Made by a program: the position numbers and the translations under genes. From the NCBI GenBank assembly GCA_964419805.1, contig CAYQQA010000002.1, positions 825 to 25,056 on the forward strand: a stretch of 24,232 bases of DNA, in the 5' to 3' direction. Source of the stretch: Candidatus Woesearchaeota archaeon. GTDB lineage: Archaea; Nanobdellota; Nanobdellia; Pacearchaeales; GW2011-AR1. Shown here piece by piece: positions 2,367-23,946 of the stretch (the stretch's first letter is position 1; the number at the start of each line of letters is the position of its first letter). Below the pieces are notes generated by a model that was given only the letters and a program-made list of their open reading frames with translations, ran no database searches and was not told the DNA's origin.

Positions 2367-3616
2367 GGGGAGACCCCGTACTTCATGAAGGTTTGCCTGT
2401 AACCAATAACATTGGCTTTGAAGAAAAAAAAGAAGTTTTAGAGGTGTTGGAAAGTGGTGTCCTTTCAGATTTTTTAGCCAATGCAGGAGATAAATTTCTA
2501 GGGGGAAAAACTGTCTTAGAGCTCGAAAGCGAGTTTAAAAAAAAGTTTGGAGTGAAATATGCAATATCTTTTAATTCCGCAACTACTGCTCTTGATGCAG
2601 CTGTTTGTTGCTTGGATATATGTCCGGGGGACGAGGTAATTGTTTCTCCTTACACAATGTCTGCTTCAGCAACCTCTATTTTAATGAATGGAGCAATCCC
2701 TATTTTTGCAGATATAGAAGAAGATAGTTTTTGTTTGAATTCCCATTCAATAAGAGAACGAATAACAGAAAAAACAAAAGCAATTATGGTGACAAATATT
2801 TTTGGAGGATCTGCACGGTATGACGAAATAATTGAAATTGCAAAAAACTTTAATTTGAAAATAATCGAAGATAATGCCCAAGCTCCTGGAGGAATTTACA
2901 AAAATAGATTATTGGGAACTATTGGAGATGTTGGAGTTTTTAGCTTTAACCGTCACAAAACTATGCAGTGTGGTGAAGGAGGAGTTTTGATTACCAACAA
3001 TAAAGATTATGCATTCAGAGCCCAACTAAAAAGGAATCATGGAGAGGTCATACTTGACGATTTAAAAATAGATGAAAAATTTATTCTAGGAAGCAATTAT
3101 CGGCTTACAGAAGTAAATGCAGCAATAGCCAAGGCCCAACTAAAGAAATTAGATTTTTTAAATGAAAGAAGAATACTCTTAGCAGAATATTTATCAGAGA
3201 AATTAAAAGGCATTGAAGGATTAACCCCTGTTTATGTTTTGCCAGATTCCACTCATGTGTATTATTTATACCCTATAAAATTTGATGAGCAAAAATTTGG
3301 AATCTCGCGAGAATTATTTGTCAAGGCAATGAAAAAAGAAGGATTTAATTTAAACTCAGGTTATCTCAAGCCATTGCATCTTTTATCTTTATTCCAAAAA
3401 AAGAAAATTTATAAAAATTCTGGATATCCGTTTACCTTAAATAAGGATCTAAATTATTCTAAAGGAATTTGCCCTGTGGCTGAAAAATTTTATGAAAAAG
3501 AACTAATCTTAACAGACATCTGCAGATATCCTTTGAGTAAACTCCATGTGAATCTTTTTATAAAAGCTATTGAGAAAATAATTTCAAATAAAAAATTATT
3601 GAAACATATAAAATGA
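2345..3616 (+). CDS. DegT/DnrJ/EryC1/StrS family PLP-dependent sugar aminotransferase
   Basis: FNSATTAL, PGDEVIVSPYTMSASA, IIEDNAQAPG, FSFNRHKTMQCGEGG (PLP lysine) and GSNYRLTE. A GGAG lies about 10 nt upstream of the ATG. Confidence 0.92.
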   Translation: MEKPAILGGDPVLHEGLPVTNNIGFEEKKEVLEVLESGVLSDFLANAGDKFLGGKTVLELESEFKKKFGVKYAISFNSATTALDAAVCCLDICPGDEVIVSPYTMSASATSILMNGAIPIFADIEEDSFCLNSHSIRERITEKTKAIMVTNIFGGSARYDEIIEIAKNFNLKIIEDNAQAPGGIYKNRLLGTIGDVGVFSFNRHKTMQCGEGGVLITNNKDYAFRAQLKRNHGEVILDDLKIDEKFILGSNYRLTEVNAAIAKAQLKKLDFLNERRILLAEYLSEKLKGIEGLTPVYVLPDSTHVYYLYPIKFDEQKFGISRELFVKAMKKEGFNLNSGYLKPLHLLSLFQKKKIYKNSGYPFTLNKDLNYSKGICPVAEKFYEKELILTDICRYPLSKLHVNLFIKAIEKIISNKKLLKHIK

Positions 3617-4662
3617 ATGTTTTATTTGCAGGTCAAGACTTAGGAGGTTCTGAGGCTATCCTTCCCGTTGCATTAGCTCTAAAAAAAAATCAGAATAATA
3701 AAATAGTTTGTTTTATGGAAAGCTTAGGCAAAAAATTATTTATCAAAAATAATTTGTCTTGTGAGGATTTAGAATTTTTAAGGGATTCTCAAATCCATGA
3801 AAAAATTGTATCATTCAAACCAGACATCATAGTTACAGGAACTAGTCTCGGTTTAACCATCGATAAAAAAATAATCAAACACGCCAAGAAATTATCTATA
3901 AAATCTTTGAGTATAATTGATTACTGGGCTAATTACAAAAAAAGATTTTTAAAAACTGGAGACGGCACTTTTTATTTACCCGATTTTATATGCGTTATTG
4001 ATGATTTTATGAAACAAGAAATGATTGATGAAGGCTTTGATGGCAAAAAATTAAAAGTAACCGGTAATCCCCATTTCGACGAGTTTGCAGAGAAAAACCA
4101 TAACTCTTTAAAAAACCAATTGTTATTCATTGAGCAACCTATGTTTGACCTCAAAAAATTTGGATTAGAGGTGGGATACGACGAAGTTGAAGTTTTATCA
4201 GATATTTTGGAAATACTGAAATTTATAAACAGTAAAAATAAAAAAAAATGTTATTTATTATTGAGAATTCATCCAAGAAGTAACAAGAATCGGTTTTTGC
4301 CTTTATTAAAAAAATTTCCCGATCTTATAATATTGGACAAAAATAAAAACCTATCCGAATCAATCTCAAAATCGAGAATCGTTTTAGGGATGTCTTCTGT
4401 CGGGCTTTTTCAAGCATTTTTGGGAGGTGTAGAAGTAATGAGCTATCAACCAAATATCTCTTCAAAAACAGACGCATCTATATTAAATAAATTAGGTGTC
4501 GTAAAATCAATTTACTCTAAAGGAGAATTAAAAAGTAAACTCATAGACACATTGGCTTCAAAAAATTATGTTTTCAAAAAACATGATATGTTTAAAAAAT
4601 ATGTTGAGAATAACTCTACTGAAAAAATCATAAAATTAATCTCTCAAATTGTTTCTACATAA
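3613..4662 (+). CDS. GT-B-fold protein of CDP-glycerol glycerophosphotransferase/polysialyltransferase-like type; candidate CMP-nonulosonate transferase
   Basis: 349 aa ORF with ATGA overlap. Motifs QDLGGSEAILPV, IIDYWANY, LPDFICVID, VTGNPHFD and an HP motif (LRIHPRS) followed by LGMSSVGL, as in GT-B enzymes that use cytidine-nucleotide donors. The exact activity is inferred from context. Confidence 0.55.
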   Translation: MNVLFAGQDLGGSEAILPVALALKKNQNNKIVCFMESLGKKLFIKNNLSCEDLEFLRDSQIHEKIVSFKPDIIVTGTSLGLTIDKKIIKHAKKLSIKSLSIIDYWANYKKRFLKTGDGTFYLPDFICVIDDFMKQEMIDEGFDGKKLKVTGNPHFDEFAEKNHNSLKNQLLFIEQPMFDLKKFGLEVGYDEVEVLSDILEILKFINSKNKKKCYLLLRIHPRSNKNRFLPLLKKFPDLIILDKNKNLSESISKSRIVLGMSSVGLFQAFLGGVEVMSYQPNISSKTDASILNKLGVVKSIYSKGELKSKLIDTLASKNYVFKKHDMFKKYVENNSTEKIIKLISQIVST

Positions 4663-11508: not shown

Positions 11509-11529
11509 CTAATTTTTTATTTGATAATT

Positions 11530-12387
11530 ATGAATATAGGAATAATCGGCATGGGCGTTGTGGGAAAAGCTACTGCACATGTATTAAAAAAAGTTCATTC
11601 AATACTTCCTTATGATAAGTACAATGCCCCCTATGACAATGAATCTTCTCTTGATGAAATTGCAAAGGAATCAGATGCAACATTTTTGTGTGTTCCCACA
11701 CCCATGAAATCTTCTGGTGCAATAGATTACTCTGCAATTCATAATAGTTTAGATTATTTTTCACAAAGGACTTCTTTTTGTTGTAGGAAGTTAGAAAATC
11801 ATTTAATTGTTGTTCGATCTACTGCTACGAGCGGTACTACGGATAATCTTTCTGAAAGATACAATTTCCGGTTTGCATTTAATCCAGAATTTTTAACAGA
11901 GAGGAATTCATTTGAAGATGCCGAGAATACTGATAGGGTTGTGATTGGGTCTAATAACGAACAGGATTATAATTTAGTAGAGTCTATATATAGGCCAGTC
12001 TTTCCTAATGCAAAATATATAAATGTAAACAGAAAAACTGCTGAAATGATTAAATATGCTTCGAACGTGACTCTAGCTGGCCAAATAGCTTTAGCAAATG
12101 AGTTATTTCAAATTTGTAAGGTTATGGGGGTTAGTTGGGAAACAGTAAGGAAAGCAATCATTCTTGATAAAAGGATAGGGGCCTATACGGAGGTTCCGGG
12201 GCATGATGGAGACTTGGGGTTTGGAGGGAAATGCTTCCCAAAAGATTTGAATGCTTTAATTTACCTTGCAAGAGATCACATGTACCGACCATATTTATTA
12301 GAAGAAATTTGGAGACTAAATGAAAAGGTAAGAAAAGATAAAGATTGGTTAGAAATAGAAGGAGTAACAAATATAAAAAATGATTAA
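11530..12387 (+). CDS. UDP-glucose/GDP-mannose dehydrogenase family protein, short form lacking the C-terminal domain
   Basis: IGMGVVG, FLCVPTP, RST, FNPEFLTE, AEMIKYASN and GFGGKCFPKD (catalytic Cys). The ORF track start at 11521 is TTG; ATG 11530 was used. Confidence 0.87.
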   Translation: MNIGIIGMGVVGKATAHVLKKVHSILPYDKYNAPYDNESSLDEIAKESDATFLCVPTPMKSSGAIDYSAIHNSLDYFSQRTSFCCRKLENHLIVVRSTATSGTTDNLSERYNFRFAFNPEFLTERNSFEDAENTDRVVIGSNNEQDYNLVESIYRPVFPNAKYINVNRKTAEMIKYASNVTLAGQIALANELFQICKVMGVSWETVRKAIILDKRIGAYTEVPGHDGDLGFGGKCFPKDLNALIYLARDHMYRPYLLEEIWRLNEKVRKDKDWLEIEGVTNIKND

Positions 12388-13424
12388 ATTTCCTTTAAAG
12401 GATTTATTCTGAATGGAGAATCTGGAAAATCATCTTGTAATTTTTTCCAACTTTCATGGAGATTTTCTTCTAACTCAACACATTCCCAAATAATTGGTTC
12501 CATCGGTCCTTTTTTCTTTGCCCATTCAGCTGTTTTTTTTAGCCCATCTTGCAAATTTGTTTTGTCGGCGAATCCTAGAATCTTTTCTGATTTTTCAGTC
12601 GTGCAATGAGCATGTTTTACTTCATGTCTTTCCTCGACGTGAACGGGTTTTAGATCTGACCCCATGACATTCAGTACTTCTTCTGCAAGTTGGTTAAGAG
12701 TGTATGGTTTCGCAGCACCGATATTTATAATTTGGTTTAAAGGATCCTTCTTGAAAGGAGCTTCAGCAATGCACGGGACAATATCCGAGATGTATGAAAA
12801 TGCTCTTGTTTGCTCGCCGTCCCCAAAAATTAAGGGAGGAAGTCCTTTCATAATTCGGTTCATGAATATTGTTATAACATTTCTGTAAGGATCCCCTAAA
12901 AATTGTCTTTCTCCATAAATGTTGTGTGGCCTGAAAACAATATAATCTAAACCAAATTTTTCTTTAGCACATTTTAAATCCATTTCAACTGCAAATTTTG
13001 CCACCCCATATGGATCAGTAGGTGAAGGAATATCTTCTTCACTAAATGGGGGTTTTCCCTCCCCATAAACTGCCATGGATGAAGTAAAAACAAAACATTT
13101 TACTTTATTTTTGATAGAAGCATTAATTAAATTTAATGAACCGACTAAGTTGTTCATGTAATTAAAAACGCGAATATTATGAGATAACCCTTCTGCAGCG
13201 TATGCTGCAATGTGGTAAACAATATCAGTTCCCCTCATTATTTTATTAACAAGTTTTTGATTTGTAATAGACCCCTTGATAAAAACTGCTTTAGGATTAA
13301 CATTTTCAATTAACCCTCCAGACAAATCATCCAAAACATATACCTGGTGACCTTTCTTAACCAAATAATCAACCAAGTGGCTTCCAATAAATCCTGCCCC
13401 TCCAGTAACAAGCACCTCTGCCAT
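12384..13424 (-). CDS. NAD-dependent nucleotide-sugar epimerase/dehydratase (GalE-like extended SDR)
   Basis: VTGGAGFIGSH, DDLSGG, FTSSMAVYG, YGVAK (YxxxK), RPHNIYG, GDGEQTRAFSYISD. Confidence 0.9.
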   Translation of the reverse strand: MAEVLVTGGAGFIGSHLVDYLVKKGHQVYVLDDLSGGLIENVNPKAVFIKGSITNQKLVNKIMRGTDIVYHIAAYAAEGLSHNIRVFNYMNNLVGSLNLINASIKNKVKCFVFTSSMAVYGEGKPPFSEEDIPSPTDPYGVAKFAVEMDLKCAKEKFGLDYIVFRPHNIYGERQFLGDPYRNVITIFMNRIMKGLPPLIFGDGEQTRAFSYISDIVPCIAEAPFKKDPLNQIINIGAAKPYTLNQLAEEVLNVMGSDLKPVHVEERHEVKHAHCTTEKSEKILGFADKTNLQDGLKKTAEWAKKKGPMEPIIWECVELEENLHESWKKLQDDFPDSPFRINPLKEI

Positions 13425-14404: not shown

Positions 14405-15187
14405 TCAATAATCCATAACTCTTTTATTAAGAATTTTTTTATTTTTTACATATTTAAATATCTCTTCAAGGATTCTTAATTTGAATCTGGCCTCAAATAA
14501 TCCATGTATATAAAACGAACATATCTTGTTTCCATTAATTTTCTTTTTAATTTCATTTATTATTTCATCATCTTTTTTTCTTTTTTCTACTAAAAATTCA
14601 ATTATAGGCATTTTGTTTTTCCCAAGTATGGTCATTGGAATATTTTTTATTTTTCCATATTTCTCTACTTTTTTGTCTTGAAAATCACTTATAAAGGTTA
14701 TTCCCTCGTTTTCTAACAATTTTAGAACTTTTTCATTAATGTTAAAACCAGGGGAAGCAAAACTTATAGGACTTTTTCCAAATAAAGATTTATATTTTAT
14801 CTTGCAAAGTTTTATTCTATTTGGAACATCTATTTTGTTTAACCCTCTGGTCCATTCCCGATGTTTCCACCCATGTAGCCCTAATTCATGGCCTTCATCT
14901 AAAATTCTCTTTAAAATAGAAATATTTTTTTTTGCAAAATCTCTTGGTAATAAAGCCATTCTTAATTTTTCTTTTGTTCTCCAAAGTTTTATTTTCCTTT
15001 CTCCAGAACTTTTCATTCCTCCTCTGTGTTTGATAAGCTCTAAAAAATTAGACTCTCCCCCTATCACCAAATAAAATGAAGCTTTCAAATCGTATTTTTT
15101 TAGCAAATTCAGCAATTTTGGAAGACCTTCTTTTATTCCTTTGTCTGATTCTAAATCAACCCTTAATGTAAATATTTTATTTTTCAT
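14405..15187 (-). CDS. NodB-fold polysaccharide deacetylase, ArnD-like deformylase/deacylase
   Basis: LRVDLESDKGIKEGLPKLL.LL...KASF, HELGLHGWKHREW, ASPGF, IPMT and YIHGLFE follow the ArnD motif order as recalled (LRxDxD..G.REG.P.LL, HEVGLHAWDH, IPVT, YTIHAE). Confidence 0.75.
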   Translation of the reverse strand: MKNKIFTLRVDLESDKGIKEGLPKLLNLLKKYDLKASFYLVIGGESNFLELIKHRGGMKSSGERKIKLWRTKEKLRMALLPRDFAKKNISILKRILDEGHELGLHGWKHREWTRGLNKIDVPNRIKLCKIKYKSLFGKSPISFASPGFNINEKVLKLLENEGITFISDFQDKKVEKYGKIKNIPMTILGKNKMPIIEFLVEKRKKDDEIINEIKKKINGNKICSFYIHGLFEARFKLRILEEIFKYVKNKKILNKRVMDY

Positions 15188-16394
15188 TGTAAAATTTATT
15201 GTATGTTTTTAACAACCTATTAAAATCATCTCTCCAATCAAATTTCATATTGTGGCTTTCTTTTCCCATTTTTTTCATTAAACTTTTATCATTTAAAATT
15301 TTTATTATTGCTTTTGAAATTTCTTTTGGATTATGGGGCACTATGAATCCATTTTTTTTATCTTTCACATATCTTTTCATTATTTCTAAATCTGTAGTAA
15401 CAATGGGCAGCCCTGCTGCCAAGTATTCATACAATTTGTCAGGGTCGGCCGTTTTTGTCAATAACGTTGGTTGATGGCAAATAATTCCAAGATCTGATGA
15501 ACAAACAAATTGGGCATATTTTTTTTCATCCATCCATTCTTCTATAAATTTAATATTTTTTTGCAAACCATAATTTTTTATTTTCTGTAAAAGATTTTGA
15601 TAGTACTCTTTTTCTTTAATTTCCTCTGCTATCTTTATTATGCATAAAATATTTGGAATTTTTTTAACCACCATTGCTATAGCTTCAATTAACAAATCAA
15701 TCCCAAAATAAGGAACAATGCAACCTGTGAATAAAACAACTTTTTTGCCTTGCCACCCAAATTTCTTTTTGTTTTTTATTTTTGGATTAAAATAAGATTC
15801 ATTAGCAGTGGCCGCAGAATTACTAACTATCGTAAATATATCTTCTTTTAGATTATGCTTTTTCATTATAAGTTTTTTTTGAGGATTGCTAACAACAACA
15901 ACATGATCTATATTTCTTAACGAGATTTTTTCAAAAGTATGGAAAACTTTAATTTTTATTTTAGAAATCCAACTTATCTCATCCCCTTCTTTTAAAGTAG
16001 ATTCTCCGCTCCAAGGATCATGATAATCTAGGATTATTTTGGCTTTAACTCCTAAAAGTTTAGATATAAATGCGGGAAGTAATGAAGAATGTCTATGGCA
16101 GTGGATTATCGAGATATTTTTTTTGTTATCTATTTTTTTTAATTTTTTTGCCCCGAAAAAACCAAAAAAAATTAAATCAAAAAAAGATATTTTGTTTACA
16201 GGTTCTTCCGACAAAAATCCTTTTTTCTCGACAACAATTGTTTTAAATTTTTCTGAATAGTTTTTTTTTCTTTTTTTCTTTTTCAGTAATAACCTATAAA
16301 CTCCAAAACCTTCCTTTGAAAGATCTCTACACATTTGAATAATTCTCGGAGGTTCTTGAAAATCTCTTGCAAAAATCTGGACAATTGTTTTCAT
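15177..16394 (-). CDS. GT4 family glycosyltransferase
   Basis: IHCHRH, LDYHDPW, VLFTG....FGIDLLI and PDKLYEYLAAGLPIVTT. ATG 16394, 1 nt after the upstream stop, is preferred to the ORF-track start at 16415. Confidence 0.88.
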   Translation of the reverse strand: MKTIVQIFARDFQEPPRIIQMCRDLSKEGFGVYRLLLKKKKRKKNYSEKFKTIVVEKKGFLSEEPVNKISFFDLIFFGFFGAKKLKKIDNKKNISIIHCHRHSSLLPAFISKLLGVKAKIILDYHDPWSGESTLKEGDEISWISKIKIKVFHTFEKISLRNIDHVVVVSNPQKKLIMKKHNLKEDIFTIVSNSAATANESYFNPKIKNKKKFGWQGKKVVLFTGCIVPYFGIDLLIEAIAMVVKKIPNILCIIKIAEEIKEKEYYQNLLQKIKNYGLQKNIKFIEEWMDEKKYAQFVCSSDLGIICHQPTLLTKTADPDKLYEYLAAGLPIVTTDLEIMKRYVKDKKNGFIVPHNPKEISKAIIKILNDKSLMKKMGKESHNMKFDWRDDFNRLLKTYNKFYNEK

Positions 16395-16395
16395 C

Positions 16396-17493
16396 TTATT
16401 TGAGAGCCTCTTCATAAACCTTTTTTAATTTTTTGTTTCTTTCTTTTATTGAGAATTTTCCACTTTTAACTATTTTTAAACCTTCCTTTGACATTTTTAT
16501 TCTTAAATTTTCATCTTTTATCAACTCAGATGTTCTTTCTACAATTTTTTTAATCACTTTTTCTTCTTTTTCACCTATAAAAGTTTGATTTATTTTTCCG
16601 TTTGTTGAGACCACAAATCCATTCTTTCCATCTTCAATTATCTCCTTTCTTGTGGGGACATTGACAGTTACTACAGGCAATCCGAATGCTAGGGCTTCTA
16701 CAAAAGGAAACCCAAATGTATCACTATATCCCGGACATACATAAATGTCTGTAGAAGGATAAATTTCCTCTAGAAGTTTTTTGTGATCAATTAGATTGAA
16801 CCATTTCAACTTTTTATTTTTAGAATATTTTTTCCTTATAAATTCAGGAATTTCTCCCACAACTAACGCTTCAACATTTTTGAAGGTTTTTGTTAATCTA
16901 TCAAACGCTTCTACTGTGTGGAGCCCTCCCTTTCCCATAAAGTATCTTCCTATAAACAAAAGCCGAATATTCTTACTTTTTGTTTTTTTAAAATTAGAGG
17001 GAGCAATCCCGTATGTTACAACTTCTACTTTATCCTGCACCCTAGGAAATTTTTTTATTATGTCTTTTTTTGTCTCTTCTGTCCAAGCGATAATCTTTTT
17101 ACAATTATCTTTTTCAAGAATTTTAGATGCTTTTTTTAGCCCTTTTAGAGTTTCATGATCTGTTATCAACATTTGCCACACAGATTCAAAATCTGCAACC
17201 CAAGGAGCATTCCCAGAACTTAAACAATGGGCGCAATGAAGTAAATTGTAGTTTTTGTTTTTCGGTTTTTTATGAATGTTCAGTAATGAAATGCCCATTC
17301 TCCTCAAATTCCTCCTTATTAATTTTTTTAGAAAGTTAAAAAAGAGCATTTTGCTTTTACTGGTAATCATCCCGTGTTTTTTTCCTTCAACAATATATTC
17401 AATTCCTTCTGGAGGAGAATCCAAAATTGATTTGTAATATTGAGAATCTGAAATTTTCCAAGGATACTGAAGGTACACTTTTATTTTTTCCAT
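16396..17493 (-). CDS. GT4 family glycosyltransferase
   Basis: LLFIGR...KGG, DIYVCPGYSDTFGFPFVEALAFGLPVVT and EIIEDGKNGF. Confidence 0.9.
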   Translation of the reverse strand: MEKIKVYLQYPWKISDSQYYKSILDSPPEGIEYIVEGKKHGMITSKSKMLFFNFLKKLIRRNLRRMGISLLNIHKKPKNKNYNLLHCAHCLSSGNAPWVADFESVWQMLITDHETLKGLKKASKILEKDNCKKIIAWTEETKKDIIKKFPRVQDKVEVVTYGIAPSNFKKTKSKNIRLLFIGRYFMGKGGLHTVEAFDRLTKTFKNVEALVVGEIPEFIRKKYSKNKKLKWFNLIDHKKLLEEIYPSTDIYVCPGYSDTFGFPFVEALAFGLPVVTVNVPTRKEIIEDGKNGFVVSTNGKINQTFIGEKEEKVIKKIVERTSELIKDENLRIKMSKEGLKIVKSGKFSIKERNKKLKKVYEEALK

Positions 17494-17594: not shown

Positions 17595-18104
17595 ATGGTA
17601 GAAAAAAGTAAGAAGAAATTTGTTCACAATATCAAGCTAAGTTTTTTTAGAAAATTTATCAATCGTATTTTCTACTTTTTAGGTTATTTTGGGCCAGGAA
17701 ATAGTTTAAGAGTTTTTGCAAACAGAATGAGAGGAGTCAAAATAGGGAAAAATGTTTTTATTGATGCCTTTGTCCATTTGGACACCGCAGTTCCTCATTT
17801 AATCAAAATAGAGGACAATGTAAAACTTTCTGTAGGTGTAAAAATATTTGCGCACAACTCTGTTTTTCAAGATATAAATCCTTTAGACCCAATTGTAATT
17901 TCTCCGGTGTTGATAAAAAAAAGAGCTCAACTAGCGCCAAACTCAATAGTGCTGGAAGGAGTAACCATCGGTGAAAACTCTATAATTGGAACTTCCGCAG
18001 TTGTAAATAAAGATATTCCTAATGGAGCTATTGCAGTAGGAATTCCCGCAAAACCTGTAAAAGATTATAAAGAAGCAAGAAAATTTATCTTTGAAAACAA
18101 TTAA
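17595..18104 (+). CDS. Hexapeptide-repeat (LbH) acyltransferase, sugar O-/N-acetyltransferase-like
   Basis: GVKIGKNVFI, IKIEDNV, GVTIGENSIIG..AVVNKDIP...IAVGIPAKPVK. Confidence 0.88.
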   Translation: MVEKSKKKFVHNIKLSFFRKFINRIFYFLGYFGPGNSLRVFANRMRGVKIGKNVFIDAFVHLDTAVPHLIKIEDNVKLSVGVKIFAHNSVFQDINPLDPIVISPVLIKKRAQLAPNSIVLEGVTIGENSIIGTSAVVNKDIPNGAIAVGIPAKPVKDYKEARKFIFENN

Positions 18105-18106
18105 AG

Positions 18107-18862
18107 TCATATGAGTTTTTTCAACACTTCATCTTTTTCTTCTTTGATTTCTAAGTCTCTAATAGCCAAGGGGTCAATTTTTTTTATTTCCTCTTCATTT
18201 TTTTCATCTACAAGAAGCATATTTCTAACAGGTCTTGCCACATCAAATTTAAAATTTGTGTTTTCAATAACATTTGCGATTTTGTAGCTTGGATTTATTT
18301 TGGTTAAAGTAATTTTCTTGTCAATAAATTCAAAAACACACATATTTGAGATTATTTTATCCGGACCTTTTCCTTTGTCCCATCCACTTGCCGTAACAAA
18401 ATCAACTTTATCAACAAAAACTTTTTTACTATGATCTGGAACGTACAATACTGATTTCCTCGCGAAATGAACCACATCATCAATGCCCATGCCTCCCGGA
18501 AGCCTAATCTTCGGGAACTTAAAATTTCCAATACATGTATTATTTATATTTCCAAATTTATCAACTTGAGCTGGTCTCAAAAATTCTAAGTCTATTTTTT
18601 TTCCAATCAGCATTTCAAGGAATTCTGATAATCCAGAAATTTTGCCGTCTGAATAATTTTCAAAACAAAAAGTTGATGGAACCTTAGGATTTATTTTTGG
18701 GTTCAAATAGAATCCTGCAATAAGATTGATTTTTTTCTTTTTCATTGCTAAAACTGTGGCGACTAATGGGAGAAAGGTGGATGTTCCTTGAACTAAAGTT
18801 GTTCCTTCTTCAAGTTCTTCCGCGAGATTAATGACCAAAAAATCAGAGGTTTTCATTTCCAA
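18107..18862 (-). CDS. Family I CoA-transferase beta-subunit homologue (GctB/IpdB-like); canonical catalytic Glu not evident
   Basis: GT..LPL, AQVDKFGNINNTCIG.F..PK.RLPGG.G, H.KKVFVDKVDFVT.SG, IISNMCVFEF and C-terminal IDP..IRD.E. Confidence 0.82.
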   Translation of the reverse strand: MEMKTSDFLVINLAEELEEGTTLVQGTSTFLPLVATVLAMKKKKINLIAGFYLNPKINPKVPSTFCFENYSDGKISGLSEFLEMLIGKKIDLEFLRPAQVDKFGNINNTCIGNFKFPKIRLPGGMGIDDVVHFARKSVLYVPDHSKKVFVDKVDFVTASGWDKGKGPDKIISNMCVFEFIDKKITLTKINPSYKIANVIENTNFKFDVARPVRNMLLVDEKNEEEIKKIDPLAIRDLEIKEEKDEVLKKLI

Positions 18863-19580
18863 TAAATTTTAATATTTCTTTAATATTTGGTCCATAAAAA
18901 TTTTTACATCCTGTAGGGTAAGCCCCTTTTTTGCAAACCACAACATAATCAACATCTTCTTTTGGAATTGTTATATGTTCTTTACAGATTGTTCCAACCT
19001 CTTCCACGCTGAAGATTGTTGTTTTTGAAGCTTTAGCCATTTCTTTTTCACAAAAATCAGGTTCTTCTAAGAGAATATTTCCTTGAGCATCTACCTTTTG
19101 GGCATGTATGAATGAAAAATCAGGATTTATCTTTTCGATTTTACAAAATTTTTTTCCATCCAAAAATATCTTTTGGCAATAAGAATTTATTTTTAAGATA
19201 TCTGAATTAATAACTGACTCTGTCAGGAGAAAAGGCTTGTTTTCTGCACCTGCTTTTAATCCAAAATAATAAATTATTTCCGTTAAATCTTCAAATAAAA
19301 TTTTTTTTGATTCTATAGCTTTTCTAGTAATTTTTGAAAGTCCTAACCCTTCATAACCCACATAGGCTGCAGAGATTTTGCTTACCTTTGATTCCCTGAC
19401 CATTAAATCCACATCGATTGATCCGGCAAGAAGGAACAAATTTAAATCTTTTATTTTTTTATTTTTTATTATTTCTTTTATTATTGAAAGGGGTTTTCTA
19501 TTTATTGTAAACCCTCCTATCGCGATTGTGGAATTTGGTTTTACTATATTTTTTACTTCTCCTAATTCAATGAACTTCAT
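18843..19580 (-). CDS. Family I CoA-transferase alpha-subunit homologue (GctA/IpdA-like)
   Basis: IAIGGFTINRKPLSIIKEI, GLKAGAENKPFL, PDFSFIHAQKVDAQGN, TIFSVEE and VDYVV...GAYPTGC. Confidence 0.85.
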   Translation of the reverse strand: MKFIELGEVKNIVKPNSTIAIGGFTINRKPLSIIKEIIKNKKIKDLNLFLLAGSIDVDLMVRESKVSKISAAYVGYEGLGLSKITRKAIESKKILFEDLTEIIYYFGLKAGAENKPFLLTESVINSDILKINSYCQKIFLDGKKFCKIEKINPDFSFIHAQKVDAQGNILLEEPDFCEKEMAKASKTTIFSVEEVGTICKEHITIPKEDVDYVVVCKKGAYPTGCKNFYGPNIKEILKFIGNENL

Positions 19581-20118
19581 TTTTTTCTTTTAAATCTTTC
19601 ATGTACTCAGTCAAAGGTATATTAAAATTTATTTCTTCGTTAATTTCTGGAACCCCTTTTTCATCAATATGGTATGCAAACTGATATAAAGTTTTGCCTC
19701 CTGGAGTGTGATTTCTCATTTTAGCCTCAATTTCAAAACCCAATTTTTCAAACATTGATGAAACTGAAGGATTTTCTCCAACTAATGAATCGGTAATTTT
19801 TCTTCTTCCTTCCATATGGAAAATTTTTATGGCTGATTTATAGAGAAGTTTTCCAATTCCCTTGCCCCTATATTCCGGCAAAACTGCAACTTTACCACCT
19901 TTCCCAATATGTGATTGGGGCCTGTGCAATTTTAATGCTCCAACAATTTTTCCATCAATCTCCACAACAATTATTGAAATTTTTCCTTTTTCATTTTCTT
20001 TTAAACATTTATTTATTTCTTTAATATCAGTATAGGGCAGCCAAATTCCTCCAGATTTGTAAACGTTAAGTATTTCTTCAGCCTTTTCAATACTAGCTTT
20101 TTTCACTTCCTTCTTCAT
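19567..20118 (-). CDS. GNAT family acyltransferase
   Basis: VAVLPEYRGKGIGKLL acyl-CoA motif and FEKLGF. Overlaps both neighbours. Confidence 0.85.
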   Translation of the reverse strand: MKKEVKKASIEKAEEILNVYKSGGIWLPYTDIKEINKCLKENEKGKISIIVVEIDGKIVGALKLHRPQSHIGKGGKVAVLPEYRGKGIGKLLYKSAIKIFHMEGRRKITDSLVGENPSVSSMFEKLGFEIEAKMRNHTPGGKTLYQFAYHIDEKGVPEINEEINFNIPLTEYMKDLKEKNEVH

Positions 20119-21212
20119 CTCAAAACCTCCACAATCGCTTTTGTTAATCCTTCATGCCCATAAGGATTTTTAAAATTTTTTATTTCTATTTCTTTGTTTT
20201 CTATTTTTTCAATTATCTTTCTTCCGTATCTAACATTTACTCCTACTAAAAAATTTATCCCAGTATAAAGGCCTTCCTGCCTTTCAGTTTTTTTCCTCAG
20301 AATAATGCAAGGTTTTTTAAAAACAAGACTTTCTTCCTGAATGCTTCCTCCGTCGGTAACTAAGTATTCACAATTTGCAAGAAGAAAAATAAAATCAGAA
20401 TAATCCGTTAAAGGTAAAATTTCAACATTTTTCATTTTTTTTAAATGCCTCAAAAGTCCATATTTTTTCAAATAGTAAAGAGTATTGTCGTGAATTGGCC
20501 AAATTGTTTTTATTTTTATGTTTCCCAAAATCCTTATAATTTTTTTCATTCTTTCTTTGCTCCGCAAGTTTTCATGACGGTGAAGATTAACAAGGGCGTA
20601 TTTTTGTTTTTTGTTTTTATTTTTTTTCAAAACAATTTTAGCAGAATCAACAATTGTGTTTCCTGTTTTAATTATTATTTTATTTTTGAATTCTTTTTTT
20701 AACGTTTTTTCAGTTAAATCAGACACGGCCAATAATATGTCTGAGAAATTGTCACAAATTTTTCTGGATATTTCCTCGGGAAAAGGTTCAAACAGCGAAC
20801 CACTTCTTAGGCCTGCTTCAAGATGCACATTTTTCCATTTTTTCCCCGGATTAAAAAATTTGCTTGATCCTATCGCGGCACTGCTCGTACTCATTGTGTC
20901 TCCATGGTAAACAACATATTTTGGATTTATTTTTTTCAACATTTTTTTAATTTTAAAAATAATTTCAATGTTCCAGAAAAATGAAGCCCGATTTATTTTT
21001 GACCAAAATTTGGTGCTTATATCTGGTTCTTTGCTCAAAATAAAATCCGGTTTTTTAATCCCAAATTTTTCACAAGCCTTCCCTAAAGGGTGCTGACCCG
21101 TGTGGATAAAAAAATAATCAAGGCTTCTATTTTGAAATTCTTTCATCAAGGGCATGCATTTTATAAGTTCCGCTTTTGTTCCGATAATTATTGCAACCCC
21201 AGAATCTTTCAT
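20115..21212 (-). CDS. wecB: UDP-N-acetylglucosamine 2-epimerase, non-hydrolysing type
   Basis: GTKAELIK, HTGQH, HGDT, HLEAGLRSG..EPFPEE..R, HRHEN, TDGGSIQEE and TERQEG. Confidence 0.87.
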   Translation of the reverse strand: MKDSGVAIIIGTKAELIKCMPLMKEFQNRSLDYFFIHTGQHPLGKACEKFGIKKPDFILSKEPDISTKFWSKINRASFFWNIEIIFKIKKMLKKINPKYVVYHGDTMSTSSAAIGSSKFFNPGKKWKNVHLEAGLRSGSLFEPFPEEISRKICDNFSDILLAVSDLTEKTLKKEFKNKIIIKTGNTIVDSAKIVLKKNKNKKQKYALVNLHRHENLRSKERMKKIIRILGNIKIKTIWPIHDNTLYYLKKYGLLRHLKKMKNVEILPLTDYSDFIFLLANCEYLVTDGGSIQEESLVFKKPCIILRKKTERQEGLYTGINFLVGVNVRYGRKIIEKIENKEIEIKNFKNPYGHEGLTKAIVEVLR

Positions 21213-21233
21213 AACAATATTCTTTGATTAACT

Positions 21234-21241
21234 AATTTAAA
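21234..21241 (-). promoter_or_regulatory. Putative TATA box (TTTAAATT) for the wecB-GNAT-CoA-transferase operon
   Basis: Ends 21 nt before the - strand ATG at 21212, in the 31 nt gap after aglB. Confidence 0.6.
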
Positions 21242-21243
21242 TC

Positions 21244-23946
21244 TTATGGATTTGTTCTAACCTCTAAATCATCAAACTCCGCATATTTCCCTTGTCTTCT
21301 TAAGAATTCTTCTTTTTCTAAAATATAATCCGGATAGTCAACATCCCATATCTTGATAGGTCCCCTAAATCCTTGATAATAAATAAATTCTCCAAGATTA
21401 GCTCCTTGAGATTTTAAACTTTCAACAACAGGATCATCTTGTGAATGGGCTAGTTTTATCGTCGGGTACTTGTCAAGCGGATCGTCCATCAAGTACATTT
21501 GTGCAAACAAACTATTTTCTGTTTTTTCAGAAAGGTAAAGCATTGCGCCAAAATTATCAATCCCTGTACCAGAACTCGTCTGTTCCAAAGAAGGGATAAA
21601 CACAACTGTCGCGTTCACACCTTCTTCATATTGAATTAACTGTCCTTGGACATAAATGTTTTTTATAGGGATCCTTATCTGTTGATCATTATACAAGTAA
21701 ACCCCTATAGGTTGCTTAACTCCAAAAGAGCCTTCATCATTTCTCATGTCAAGTATCACTCCAATCACTGCCGCCCTGCCTTGGGGGAGCAGAATCTCAT
21801 TGCCCTCCTGACTATAGATTATGTCTTTGTCCAATGAAAATCCTCCTTGGAAAACTCTCAAAGTGGTGTTTTGGGTTTCTTGAGTTTGTCGCGGATCATT
21901 TGGCATTAACGGAATCCAGCTATTTCTGTCACTCCCTGTTTTATCACTCCCAATGCTACTATATGCCCCATATTTTCCTAAGTCAGTCGGATCTATGAGT
22001 AGATTTGTGATTTCATTAGACTTCATAAAGCTTAGCGCTAAATCTGGAACCGGATTTGTCAAAACATATCTTCCAATCATGTGGTCCCTGAATTCTCCTT
22101 GAAAATGTCCTCCATCAGCAATTGTTTTTCTTTCCCCCAAATACTGCACCCAATACCCATAATCCCACCAGTGAACAAAAACACTTTTTTCAGCAGTATT
22201 ATCTCTGACCCATTCCATCGCCTTCTGCCACTGGCCGTTTGCACTTGGCCCAGTGTATTTAGCTTGTGCCGTGGAAACTCCTACAAAAAAATTAAAACTC
22301 AATATTAACAATATTAAAATAATTACGCTTCCTGCTCCAAAAAACAATTTTGACATTTCTTCTTTAGAACTTTTAAACTTTCTGACAACTTGGTCAAAAC
22401 CATATCCTACCATCATGCAAGTAACTGGCGTTATTACAAAAAATAATCTTACAGCTCCTCTGGTCCCGACAATCATTGGGATCAGCAAAGATGCGAAAAC
22501 CAAAAACCTTCCATCAATACCGTTTATTTTTTTGTTAAAATACAAATAAAGTGCATATACTCCAAAAATCGCAATGCCTCCAAAATACAAAAGTTTGCTG
22601 ATAAAATTAGTCCCATTCAAAATAGAGCTTGAAGAAATTCTGCTCAAAGAAATTCCTAAAATCATGGCTATCCAAAAAATTGCAAATAAATATTTGTCTT
22701 TTTTCTTTTTAGCTATTTTTGACATTTCAATTCCTAATAACGCTGAGCCTAGCAAAAATATCCAAAAAAATCTCGGTCCTATTTGTGAGGTCCAATCCTG
22801 AAGAAAAGGTTGCTTGTTTTCAGCCACCGTCAAACCGACCCTGCCAGTTCCAAAAGGATGTATTAATCTGGAAAAGAAATCAGAAACCAATGAAAAAGGA
22901 TCCATCCCCAAAATAGGAAGCAACAAAAATCCCAGAATAATTGTTATCACAAAGCTTGCAACAATTCTGTATTTTTTTAACAAACCTTCTTTTCCATAAT
23001 ACTTCTGGACAGCAAAATCAACAATTAGAAAACCAAAAACAAAAAGAAAAATTATGCCCTCAGTACCTGAAATAAATCTATCCAAAATTCCTCCTGCTCC
23101 ATATTTAGTAAAAATACCAAAAATAATTCCCGAAACAAACCAAATCAGATATGATAAAACAAAATAGTTTCTAATTTTCCCATCAATTTTATGTTCGTTT
23201 ATAATCCAATAAAGAAAAAAAGCCAGAGGAACTACCATGAAGACAAATTTAGCAATCCCTCCCCAAGCTACTATTGTCAAAGTTGTTAGTGCCCCCAAAA
23301 TCACCGAAGCTGTTACAGAATTTTTCAACTTTTTTTTGTCGGTTTTTTCTTTTTCAAAATTATTAAATAAAAGTATTAATGGAATTAATGATAAAAAAAA
23401 CGCAGCCATACCTATTGATTCGTGGTCTGCAAATCCTGCGGTAGATCTATAAATATAACTTGGAATAAACGCAAGAAAAATTGAGCTCACCGTCGAGGCA
23501 GTTTTTGATTTTGTTAAAAGCAATACTAAAAAGAAAAAAGCAATAAATCCAATAATATAAAAAATAACTGGTGAAATAACATCGATGTATTGAATGGAAA
23601 AATCTCCAAAAACATTTGAAATTTTATGGAATAAAACAACCAGGTCTGGAAGAATTTCCGGACTCCACCCAACGTTAAAAGGACCTCTTAACGGATCAAA
23701 TTCAGGCAAACCTCCTTGGCTTATTGTTTCAGCCATCCTCAAAAAATAAAACGGATCCAAAGCAGTAGGGATGTATTCTCCCGTTGTTTGGTCCTTGAGG
23801 AGATGAAGATTGCTAGTCCTTATAGAAGTGCTCCAAATAAGTGTCACCAGAAGAATTATAAAAACAACAGCCAGCTGAAATTTTTTATTCAAAAAAAGAT
23901 TCTTTATTTTCTTAAAATCAATTTTGATTTCATCTTTTTCTTCCAT
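21244..23946 (-). CDS. aglB: Archaeal oligosaccharyltransferase AglB (STT3 family)
   Basis: 900 aa multi-pass membrane protein with ALDPFYFLR, GFADHE, TVAE (TIXE-like), HWWDYG, ADGGH and a DxxK (DLGK) DK motif. Confidence 0.95.
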   Translation of the reverse strand: MEEKDEIKIDFKKIKNLFLNKKFQLAVVFIILLVTLIWSTSIRTSNLHLLKDQTTGEYIPTALDPFYFLRMAETISQGGLPEFDPLRGPFNVGWSPEILPDLVVLFHKISNVFGDFSIQYIDVISPVIFYIIGFIAFFFLVLLLTKSKTASTVSSIFLAFIPSYIYRSTAGFADHESIGMAAFFLSLIPLILLFNNFEKEKTDKKKLKNSVTASVILGALTTLTIVAWGGIAKFVFMVVPLAFFLYWIINEHKIDGKIRNYFVLSYLIWFVSGIIFGIFTKYGAGGILDRFISGTEGIIFLFVFGFLIVDFAVQKYYGKEGLLKKYRIVASFVITIILGFLLLPILGMDPFSLVSDFFSRLIHPFGTGRVGLTVAENKQPFLQDWTSQIGPRFFWIFLLGSALLGIEMSKIAKKKKDKYLFAIFWIAMILGISLSRISSSSILNGTNFISKLLYFGGIAIFGVYALYLYFNKKINGIDGRFLVFASLLIPMIVGTRGAVRLFFVITPVTCMMVGYGFDQVVRKFKSSKEEMSKLFFGAGSVIILILLILSFNFFVGVSTAQAKYTGPSANGQWQKAMEWVRDNTAEKSVFVHWWDYGYWVQYLGERKTIADGGHFQGEFRDHMIGRYVLTNPVPDLALSFMKSNEITNLLIDPTDLGKYGAYSSIGSDKTGSDRNSWIPLMPNDPRQTQETQNTTLRVFQGGFSLDKDIIYSQEGNEILLPQGRAAVIGVILDMRNDEGSFGVKQPIGVYLYNDQQIRIPIKNIYVQGQLIQYEEGVNATVVFIPSLEQTSSGTGIDNFGAMLYLSEKTENSLFAQMYLMDDPLDKYPTIKLAHSQDDPVVESLKSQGANLGEFIYYQGFRGPIKIWDVDYPDYILEKEEFLRRQGKYAEFDDLEVRTNP

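Follow-up and report, generated by a model that had tools for sequence, protein, structure and literature searches.

In true family I CoA-transferases, a glutamate of the beta subunit carries CoA. In the glutaconate CoA-transferase of Acidaminococcus fermentans (GctAB, PDB 1poi), which serves glutamate fermentation, the beta subunit contains Glu54 in a VESG motif and a GSGGA loop. To our knowledge, only two enzymes of this fold that lack the glutamate have known reactions, IpdAB and AibAB. IpdAB (PDB 6co6, 6coj and 6con) is a ring-opening hydrolase that acts on COCHEA-CoA in steroid catabolism; it has Gly in place of the catalytic beta Glu (Gly57 in the RHA1 enzyme) and does not perform CoA transfer between small acids (PMC5380842). 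AibAB of Myxococcus xanthus (PDB 5mzw) is a 3-methylglutaconyl-CoA decarboxylase with a Glu-less beta subunit, which uses Cys56 and Glu72 and whose Gly134 NH contacts the enolate (PMC7756340).

We analyzed a window of 24,232 nucleotides (contig CAYQQA010000002.1) from a tiny uncultured DPANN archaeon, Candidatus Woesearchaeota archaeon, with a genome completeness of 82%. Four genes, all on the minus strand, follow 3' of aglB and encode a wecB-type epimerase, a GNAT acyltransferase, and the alpha and beta subunits of a CoA-transferase-fold protein. Successive genes overlap by 4, 14, and 20 nt; the last overlap is 14 nt if the ATG of beta is used, and an alternative TTG start two codons upstream would extend beta to 18107-18862. 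These coordinates agree with the first-pass annotation, which had described four overlapping minus-strand genes directly behind aglB. The genes and motifs are as follows.

14405..15187, minus strand: ArnD/NodB-like polysaccharide deacetylase (PF01522, 4.4e-15), a putative source of a free sugar amine
15177..17493, minus strand: two GT-B glycosyltransferases (PF00534 and PF13439) between the deacetylase and the cassette, GT1 at 16396-17493 and GT4 at 15177-16415
17595..18104, plus strand: hexapeptide-repeat acetyltransferase, 169 aa (PF00132), convergent with beta
18107..18856, minus strand: CoA-transferase-fold beta subunit of 249 aa when read from the ATG (PF01144 CoA_trans, 8.1e-15)
18476..18499, minus strand: PGGMGIDD of beta, the changed GxGGA loop (GSGGAN in GctB, G(S/A/T)GG in outgroups)
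18707..18718, minus strand: AGFY of beta, residues 47-50, the Glu-less place of the canonical catalytic Glu, aligned to VESG of GctB, FEAG of the outgroup, and Cys56 of AibB
18843..19580, minus strand: CoA-transferase-fold alpha subunit, 245 aa (PF01144 CoA_trans, 1.6e-17)
19278..19295, minus strand: FEDLTE of alpha, residues 96-101, with Glu101 as the candidate catalytic base
19567..20118, minus strand: GNAT acyltransferase, 183 aa, matching several GNAT Pfam models
20115..21212, minus strand: wecB-type non-hydrolysing UDP-GlcNAc 2-epimerase (PF02350 Epimerase_2, 1.6e-58)
21213..21243, minus strand: aglB-wecB spacer, 31 nt, with TTTAAAT, TATA-like by eye, ~25 nt before the wecB ATG
21244..23946, minus strand: aglB, encoding an oligosaccharyltransferase of 900 aa and lying immediately upstream of the four genes (PF02516 STT3, 2.3e-16; STT3-PglB_core, 3.7e-08)

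The wecB product scores 204 bits against TIGR00236 (cut-off 210), as opposed to 40 bits for NeuC. The best NCBIfam matches of the hexapeptide acetyltransferase (WbbJ O-acetyltransferase, 62 bits) and of the deacetylase (ArnD deformylase, 61 bits) both lie under their cut-offs.

Profile searches support the earlier assignment of the pair to the GctAB family, with AibAB and IpdAB as repurposed relatives (PMC7756340, PMC5380842). GctAB is the top match for both subunits and IpdAB the lowest-scoring of the three solved relatives: alpha matches GctA at 5e-42 (147 bits), AibA at 5e-29 (105 bits), and IpdA at 9e-22 (81 bits), and beta matches GctB at 1e-40 (143 bits), AibB at 1e-33 (120 bits), and IpdB at 2e-17 to 2e-18 (66-70 bits). 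The pair also matches GctAB in subunit sizes and shares its alpha ED motif, and it has the two-subunit CoA_trans fold of IpdAB. The glycan-locus setting, however, is unlike the fermentative role of GctAB. It is also unlike the steroid (HIP) catabolism in which IpdAB acts: the neighbors here are glycan genes, the 82%-complete genome yielded no thiolase or enoyl-CoA hydratase, and no cyclic beta-keto-acyl-CoA substrate of the IpdAB kind is conceivable for the pair.

The beta subunit has departed from GctB at both catalytic motifs. Counted from the ATG, its Glu residues lie at positions 13, 14, 16, 17, and then 66, with none at 18-65. The segment reads KINLIAGFY in the window, and the clade consensus is GGF where GctB has VESG (IIVESG). 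Since the catalytic-position Glu is absent from 28/28 clade members, whereas both YESG/FEAG and G(S/A/T)GG persist in ~67 of the 70 beta homologues that score next best, its loss is not a chance event. The catalytic segment without Glu that the first-pass annotation had noticed is thus real and holds clade-wide. In the second motif, the clade has GGMG(I/V) instead of the canonical GxGGA, and only the last Gly is retained. This Gly124 is invariant in the clade and corresponds to Gly134 of AibB, with which beta aligns over its full length. Cys56 and Glu72 of AibB are not conserved: the clade has G/F where AibB has the Cys and STF(C/S) where it has the Glu. Of the canonical family I features, the pair therefore has the two CoA_trans (PF01144) subunits but neither the (S/Y/V)E(S/N/A)G motif nor the GxGG(A) loop of beta.

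In the alpha subunit, Glu101 is invariant in the 28 clade members. It aligns, with high posterior probability, with the sole residue that differs between the IpdA structures 6co6 (REMDE) and 6coj (REMDA). In IpdA, Glu105 reportedly acts as the catalytic base. An acidic stretch had been noted near this IpdA Glu, and Glu101 falls exactly at its position. In the alignment, the pair thus combines a replaced beta Glu with a Glu at the IpdA alpha position. GctA has Gln and AibA has Gly there, and Q or N stands at this alpha position in the three pairs examined whose beta does bear the Glu. The combination of an alpha Glu with a Glu-less beta was found in IpdAB, the cassette clade, a pair at locus L016, and four fused proteins. 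Since 73/147 diverse relatives have Glu at the alpha position, this residue is neither a specific IpdAB signature nor special to the clade.

The gene arrangement was compared across eight cassette loci and two cassette-less loci, on which all synteny counts rest. GNAT, alpha, beta, and the hexapeptide acetyltransferase stand together in 8/8 loci, with the GNAT gene immediately 5' of alpha and the hexapeptide gene convergent with beta in every one. Identities are 70-84% for the GNAT within the clade, 56-72% over the whole length of alpha and beta, and 70-74% for the hexapeptide enzyme. An ArnD/NodB-like deacetylase lies nearby in all seven loci that reach far enough. The wecB gene (61-64% identity between loci) has aglB upstream in L001, L002, L004, L006, L009, L010, and L013, but it is separated from the GNAT by methyltransferase or GT genes in 4/8 loci, and other genera have it but lack the pair. 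Of the wecB-GNAT-alpha-beta unit proposed earlier, the GNAT-alpha-beta linkage therefore stands, and wecB is separable; the constant fourth member is the hexapeptide acetyltransferase, which had been omitted. Nor, in the eight loci examined, do homologues of the pair lie mainly outside glycan loci and apart from this GNAT: all eight keep the pair beside the GNAT within AglB loci.

The cassette is rare. It was found in 1 of 60 sister genera, and searches of 300 genomes from the class and 400 from the phylum gave no match to the beta protein, leaving the cassette in none of the ~700 sampled. The search of representatives, in which the entire clade was merged into one entry, returned outgroups only. 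The nearest Glu-bearing outgroup pair adjoins an acetyl-CoA synthetase-like gene (ACAS_N/AMP-binding) without a GNAT. Block transfer among DPANN genomes could explain the flat identities of ~60-74%, as an alternative to strong selection.

The GNAT carries the CoA-binding motif R/Q-x-x-G-x-G/A as RGKGIGK and a clade-specific C-terminal extension of ~50 aa. The solved structures closest to it come from uncharacterised acetyltransferases, 2ge3 among them; neither these nor its Atlas neighbors, all generic acetyltransferases, hold a clue to the acceptor. The predicted complex of the GNAT with alpha plus beta scored 0.00, which counts neither for nor against binding. In PEP-CTERM/XrtA exopolysaccharide loci (TIGR03006, TIGR03019), a deacetylase is paired with a GNAT-fold FemAB-family transferase, which could put an acyl group back on the freed amine, the same logic as in the cassette. 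Two cassette-less sister genera of this archaeon, the two genomes on which the argument for a module swap is based, have a FemAB-like gene adjoining the deacetylase, exactly as in the PEP-CTERM/XrtA pairing. The cassette differs from those loci in having a small GNAT, presumably using CoA thioesters, together with alpha/beta and the hexapeptide acetyltransferase. The neighboring deacetylase and the FemAB-like gene that sister genera have instead lend support to the idea that the GNAT may put an unusual acyl group on an amino sugar.

Taken together, we tentatively consider the GNAT-alpha-beta-hexapeptide unit to be an optional acylation cassette of a DPANN AglB N-glycan locus, in which the pair edits the acyl donor via Glu101, a reading that we put somewhat short of probable. 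The heterodimer keeps the fold of family I CoA-transferases, along with the Gly whose backbone NH polarizes the thioester. With the beta glutamate lost, ping-pong CoA transfer is most likely not the mechanism of the pair; given a Glu at the IpdAB position of alpha, its role is probably to make or modify an acyl donor for sugar decoration, not to exchange CoA among acids. It would bind acyl-CoA, and Glu101 would serve as a general base in an IpdAB-like manner, so that an acyl donor is made or edited. The ArnD/NodB-like deacetylase may free the amine of a hexosamine, onto which the GNAT would transfer this donor, and the hexapeptide enzyme may contribute an O-acetyl group. The data show the gene content, the loss of the motifs, the alignment of the alpha Glu, the synteny, and the distribution; the catalytic role of Glu101, the hand-over of the donor to the GNAT, and the acceptor are the parts that we infer. 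Several observations count against donor editing: the 82%-complete genome shows no acyl-CoA metabolism past acetyl-CoA synthetase, half of the diverse relatives share the alpha Glu, and GctAB outscores IpdAB. More speculative, and in our view somewhat unlikely as a whole, is the proposal that a non-acetyl N-acyl group is put on a DPANN N-glycan hexosamine by an undescribed CoA-transferase-fold chemistry. Here, Glu101 would act as a nucleophile or base on an acyl-CoA derived from acetyl-CoA and a scavenged acid, and at one and the same deacetylated sugar, the cassette and a FemAB-type aminoacylation module would be able to stand in for each other.

The pair may instead still be a CoA-transferase whose nucleophilic Glu has moved from beta to alpha (Glu101), making a non-acetyl acyl-CoA for the GNAT from acetyl-CoA and a scavenged acid. 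No other route to a non-acetyl donor would be as economical in a genome (82% complete) where acetyl-CoA synthetase is the only acyl-CoA source found, and both the invariant alpha Glu and the retained thioester-contacting Gly are in line with it. We nevertheless consider it unlikely, as the GxGGA loop has changed together with the loss of the Glu. It also counts against a relocated nucleophile that Crowe et al. in 2018 reportedly could not trap a glutamyl-CoA intermediate in IpdAB. This enzyme has the same alpha-Glu/beta-Gly arrangement without CoA transfer between small acids (PMC5380842).

It is more unlikely still that the pair is a pseudo-enzyme, namely a CoA- or acyl-CoA-binding regulator or scaffold of the GNAT, the hexapeptide acetyltransferase, or both. 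Pat-type acetyltransferases, with their dead acyl-CoA-synthetase-like domain, offer a parallel. The loss of both hallmark catalytic motifs and the strict co-inheritance with two acetyltransferases speak for such a role, but the invariant Glu101 and the whole-length identity of both subunits suggest more than binding, and the genes are separate, with no fusion in the clade. A function unrelated to glycans, with the locus position reflecting inherited gene order without functional coupling, is very unlikely. The same alpha-Glu/Glu-less-beta layout does occur outside glycan loci, as in the L016 pair beside DUF362, but the cassette genes stay adjacent in all eight loci despite varying flanks, their start and stop codons overlap, and the cassette is gained or lost as a block. 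Least probable of all is an AibAB-type decarboxylase that would act on a (methyl)glutaconyl- or malonyl-type CoA and so provide the GNAT with an unsaturated or shortened acyl-CoA. The likewise Glu-less AibB (PMC7756340) is the best single-sequence PDB match to beta (6e-16, full length), but the clade conserves nothing equivalent to its Cys56 and Glu72. Such decarboxylation is also unlikely since the 82%-complete genome, in which absence is not proof, yielded no thiolase (PF00108), enoyl-CoA hydratase (PF00378), HMG-CoA synthase (PF08540), or carboxyltransferase, and thus no visible supply of 3-methylglutaconyl-CoA.

The first-pass interpretation is thus supported in part: it fares well in its sequence-level claims and less well in taking wecB as a fixed member, in the weight given to an alpha Glu that is not clade-specific, and in invoking AibAB, for which no substrate supply is visible. 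The hexapeptide member, the neighboring deacetylase, the rarity of the cassette, the FemAB-like alternative, and the missing acyl-CoA supply genes were found beyond it.

No paper with a link between CoA-transferases and either AglB loci or DPANN turned up in our literature search. The survey suggests that there are many more Glu-less CoA-transferase-fold enzymes than those with known reactions, often with the alpha-Glu/Glu-less-beta layout. With the cassette clade, such enzymes are seen for the first time in connection with glycan decoration and with a GNAT of their own, and this defines where the product can be sought. DPANN archaea attach to their hosts through their cell surfaces, of which the glycan chemistry has hardly been explored. 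Both the patchy, block-wise distribution of the cassette and the presence of a FemAB-like gene in its stead in sister genera suggest that surface acylation varies among DPANN symbionts.

The entire window is a glycan locus. Besides the genes listed here, it carries a nonulosonate module, several glycosyltransferase genes and a polysaccharide deacetylase gene (Pfam/NCBIfam), in an 868-kb source assembly that is 82% complete with ~30% G+C.

21244–23946, minus strand: aglB, STT3-type oligosaccharyltransferase gene, upstream of wecB
20115–21212, minus strand: wecB, non-hydrolysing type (TIGR00236, 204 bits)
19567–20118, minus strand: GNAT (Pfam)
18843–19580, minus strand: CoA_trans α subunit (Pfam)
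18107–18862 (TTG start) or, more likely, 18107–18856 (ATG start), minus strand: CoA_trans β subunit (Pfam)

The ORF coordinates confirm the first-pass annotation of four minus-strand genes downstream of aglB overlapping by 4, 14 and 20 nt (the last 14 nt with the β ATG start), and Pfam and NCBIfam agree on its family assignments for wecB, GNAT and the α and β subunits. The wecB score lies slightly below the TIGR00236 cut-off of 210, and the NeuC model gives only 40 bits. The aglB-wecB spacer is 31 nt, and TTTAAAT occurs ~25 nt 5′ of the wecB ATG. Elsewhere in the window, a plus-strand UDP-glucose/GDP-mannose dehydrogenase-like ORF of only 288 aa (11521–12387) has N-terminal and central domains, with no C-terminal domain detected, and its 3′ end at 12387 overlaps a convergent epimerase gene (12384–13424); this ORF may be truncated. 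A 349-aa plus-strand ORF (3613–4662), whose sole match is a weak one (E 3.5e-4) to the C-terminal part of Epimerase_2, could be a PseG/NeuC-like UDP-sugar hydrolase candidate.

Glu-less enzymes of the CoA-transferase fold, proposed earlier as repurposed homologues, are indeed known: the steroid ring-opening hydrolase IpdAB (PMC5380842) and the 3-methylglutaconyl-CoA decarboxylase AibAB (PMC7756340). The canonical catalytic Glu is likewise missing from the β subunit, as had been claimed. Numbered from the ATG, Glu occurs at positions 13, 14, 16 and 17 and next at 66, leaving none at 18–65. When 28 clade members are aligned with 4 outgroups, FEA/YEA in three of the latter gives way to GGF and a variable residue in the clade, and a profile alignment against the PDB places this spot on the Glu of IIVESG in GctB (glutaconate CoA-transferase) and on Cys56 of AibB, the position mutated in 5n00–5n03 (PMC7756340). 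The GxGGA counterpart is also altered: the clade has GGMG(I/V), against GSGGA for GctB and GVAGA for AibB. Its last Gly, invariant in the clade, is equivalent to AibB Gly134, whose NH touches the enolate (PMC7756340). Since the clade and profile alignments and the altered GxGGA agree, and ~67 of the 70 next-best β homologues retain both Glu and G(S/A/T)GG, the Glu loss is, on sequence grounds, a fixed feature of the clade and not noise.

In the α subunit, the acidic EDLTE stretch noted earlier near the position of the IpdA catalytic Glu is borne out. FEDLTE (residues 96–101) is invariant across the clade, and Glu101 aligns in the PDB profile comparison with the sole residue differing between IpdA 6co6 (REMDE) and 6coj (REMDA), the latter presumably the published E105A. 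IpdA thus has Glu at this position, where GctA has Gln, AibA Gly and the nearest outgroup Asn. The residue is not unique to the clade, being present in 73 of 147 diverse α representatives, and it follows the β state in the cases examined: all four fused α-β proteins with the α Glu lack the β Glu, as does a pair outside the clade (L016, β reading GGFGI), and three Glu-bearing β subunits (GctAB, the fused protein P0289 and the outside pair L015) are matched by Gln or Asn. Separately, the 2024-aa protein P0250 contains 22 separate stretches matching α residues 208–239 and appears to be a repeat protein made of a short CoA_trans C-terminal segment.

The pair retains the fold and the thioester-contacting Gly, has an invariant α Glu where IpdA has its catalytic residue, and lacks the covalent-catalysis Glu and the canonical oxyanion loop. 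Our leading, still tentative, reading is a non-ping-pong acyl-CoA-processing enzyme serving the GNAT. A CoA-transferase with a relocated nucleophile is conceivable but unlikely; a CoA-binding pseudo-enzyme is rather improbable.

The order GNAT-α-β-convergent hexapeptide acetyltransferase recurs in all eight cassette loci (the window, L001, L002, L004, L005, L006, L008 and one contig labelled Omnitrophota), and source labels of the homologues include Pacearchaeota and Nanoarchaeia, which places the window in a DPANN archaeon. An ArnD/NodB-like deacetylase lies downstream in 7/7 loci of sufficient length. The proposed wecB-GNAT-α-β unit stands in part: GNAT, α and β are adjacent and wecB is upstream in 8/8, but methyltransferase or glycosyltransferase genes separate wecB from GNAT in four. 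The proposed linkage to glycan genes holds, the GNAT-α-β block lying within archaeal AglB loci; a function unconnected with glycans is very improbable. Identity to the window is highest for GNAT (72–74%) and the hexapeptide enzyme (70–74%), followed by β, wecB, deacetylase and α (57–65%) and AglB (38–49%). Because wecB always accompanies the cassette, the glycan would contain ManNAc, and the acceptor is probably a de-N-acetylated hexosamine of this lipid-linked glycan.

The 10.9-kb contig labelled Candidatus Omnitrophota (proteins P0032/P0163/P0186) carries wecB, methyltransferase, GT, GNAT, α, β, Hexapep, deacetylase and GT4 in exactly the DPANN layout, and is probably a mis-binned archaeal contig rather than a bacterial copy. 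Two DPANN loci have a gene for the RuBisCO large subunit ~9 kb away from the cassette (L001:19124–20398; L006:20333–20765), where it adjoins NTP-transferase and GDPD genes; downstream of the glycan locus, 4/5 loci share DUF7796 and GDPD.

Judged by identity, GNAT (70–84% inside; next matches outside ~31–37%), α (51–67%; ~31%) and β (56–72%; ~33%) each form a tight, isolated clade. The cassette is rare. The α search returned just three sequences among 1.84 billion representatives at E 1e-30, and β was found in none of 300 sampled genomes of the class and 400 of the phylum. Among 60 sister genera, GNAT was found in 1, wecB in 12 and the deacetylase in 2.

The pair is the sole CoA_trans of the 82%-complete genome. 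Searches there for thiolase, enoyl-CoA hydratase, HMG-CoA synthase and carboxyltransferase came up empty; a single acetate-CoA ligase was identified (TIGR02188, 789 bits). Next to the nearest outgroup pair that bears the Glu lies a gene resembling acetyl-CoA synthetase (ACAS_N/AMP-binding domains), and GNAT is lacking there, a setting of ordinary acid activation. By score, IpdAB is more distant from the clade than GctAB and AibAB are; AibAB or Gct substrates have no visible source in the genome as assembled, acetyl-CoA being the sole evident thioester, and an AibAB-type decarboxylase is the least probable reading of all.

The two deacetylase-positive sister genera (L009, L010) have AglB, wecB, GT and deacetylase, lack the cassette, and encode a FemAB-family/Acetyltransf_6 protein (356–358 aa) upstream of the deacetylase.

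L009:11046–12116, plus strand: FemAB-family gene, directly 5′ of the deacetylase gene
L010:17342–18418, plus strand: FemAB-family gene, one methyltransferase gene away from the deacetylase gene

In NCBIfam, the protein scores best against TIGR03019, the PEP-CTERM-associated FemAB model (151 bits, under cut-off), and its close orthologues are absent from the two cassette carriers. With only two genomes on each side, this pattern is no more than suggestive of a FemAB-like gene as an alternative to the cassette.

No paper was found on a GNAT/hexapeptide-partnered Glu-less CoA-transferase pair in AglB loci; what is new is that, within such archaeal loci, a GNAT and a hexapeptide acetyltransferase are fixed partners of this clade. 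Also new here are the α-Glu alignment, the second-motif loss, the four-gene cassette definition and its rarity, the FemAB-like alternative and the missing acyl-CoA metabolism of the 82%-complete genome. The FemAB/cassette pattern is compatible with a scheme of re-acylation, from either an aminoacyl-tRNA or a CoA thioester, of the amine that the deacetylase would free, and the FemAB-like protein may perform aminoacyl-tRNA-dependent decoration of an archaeal glycan.
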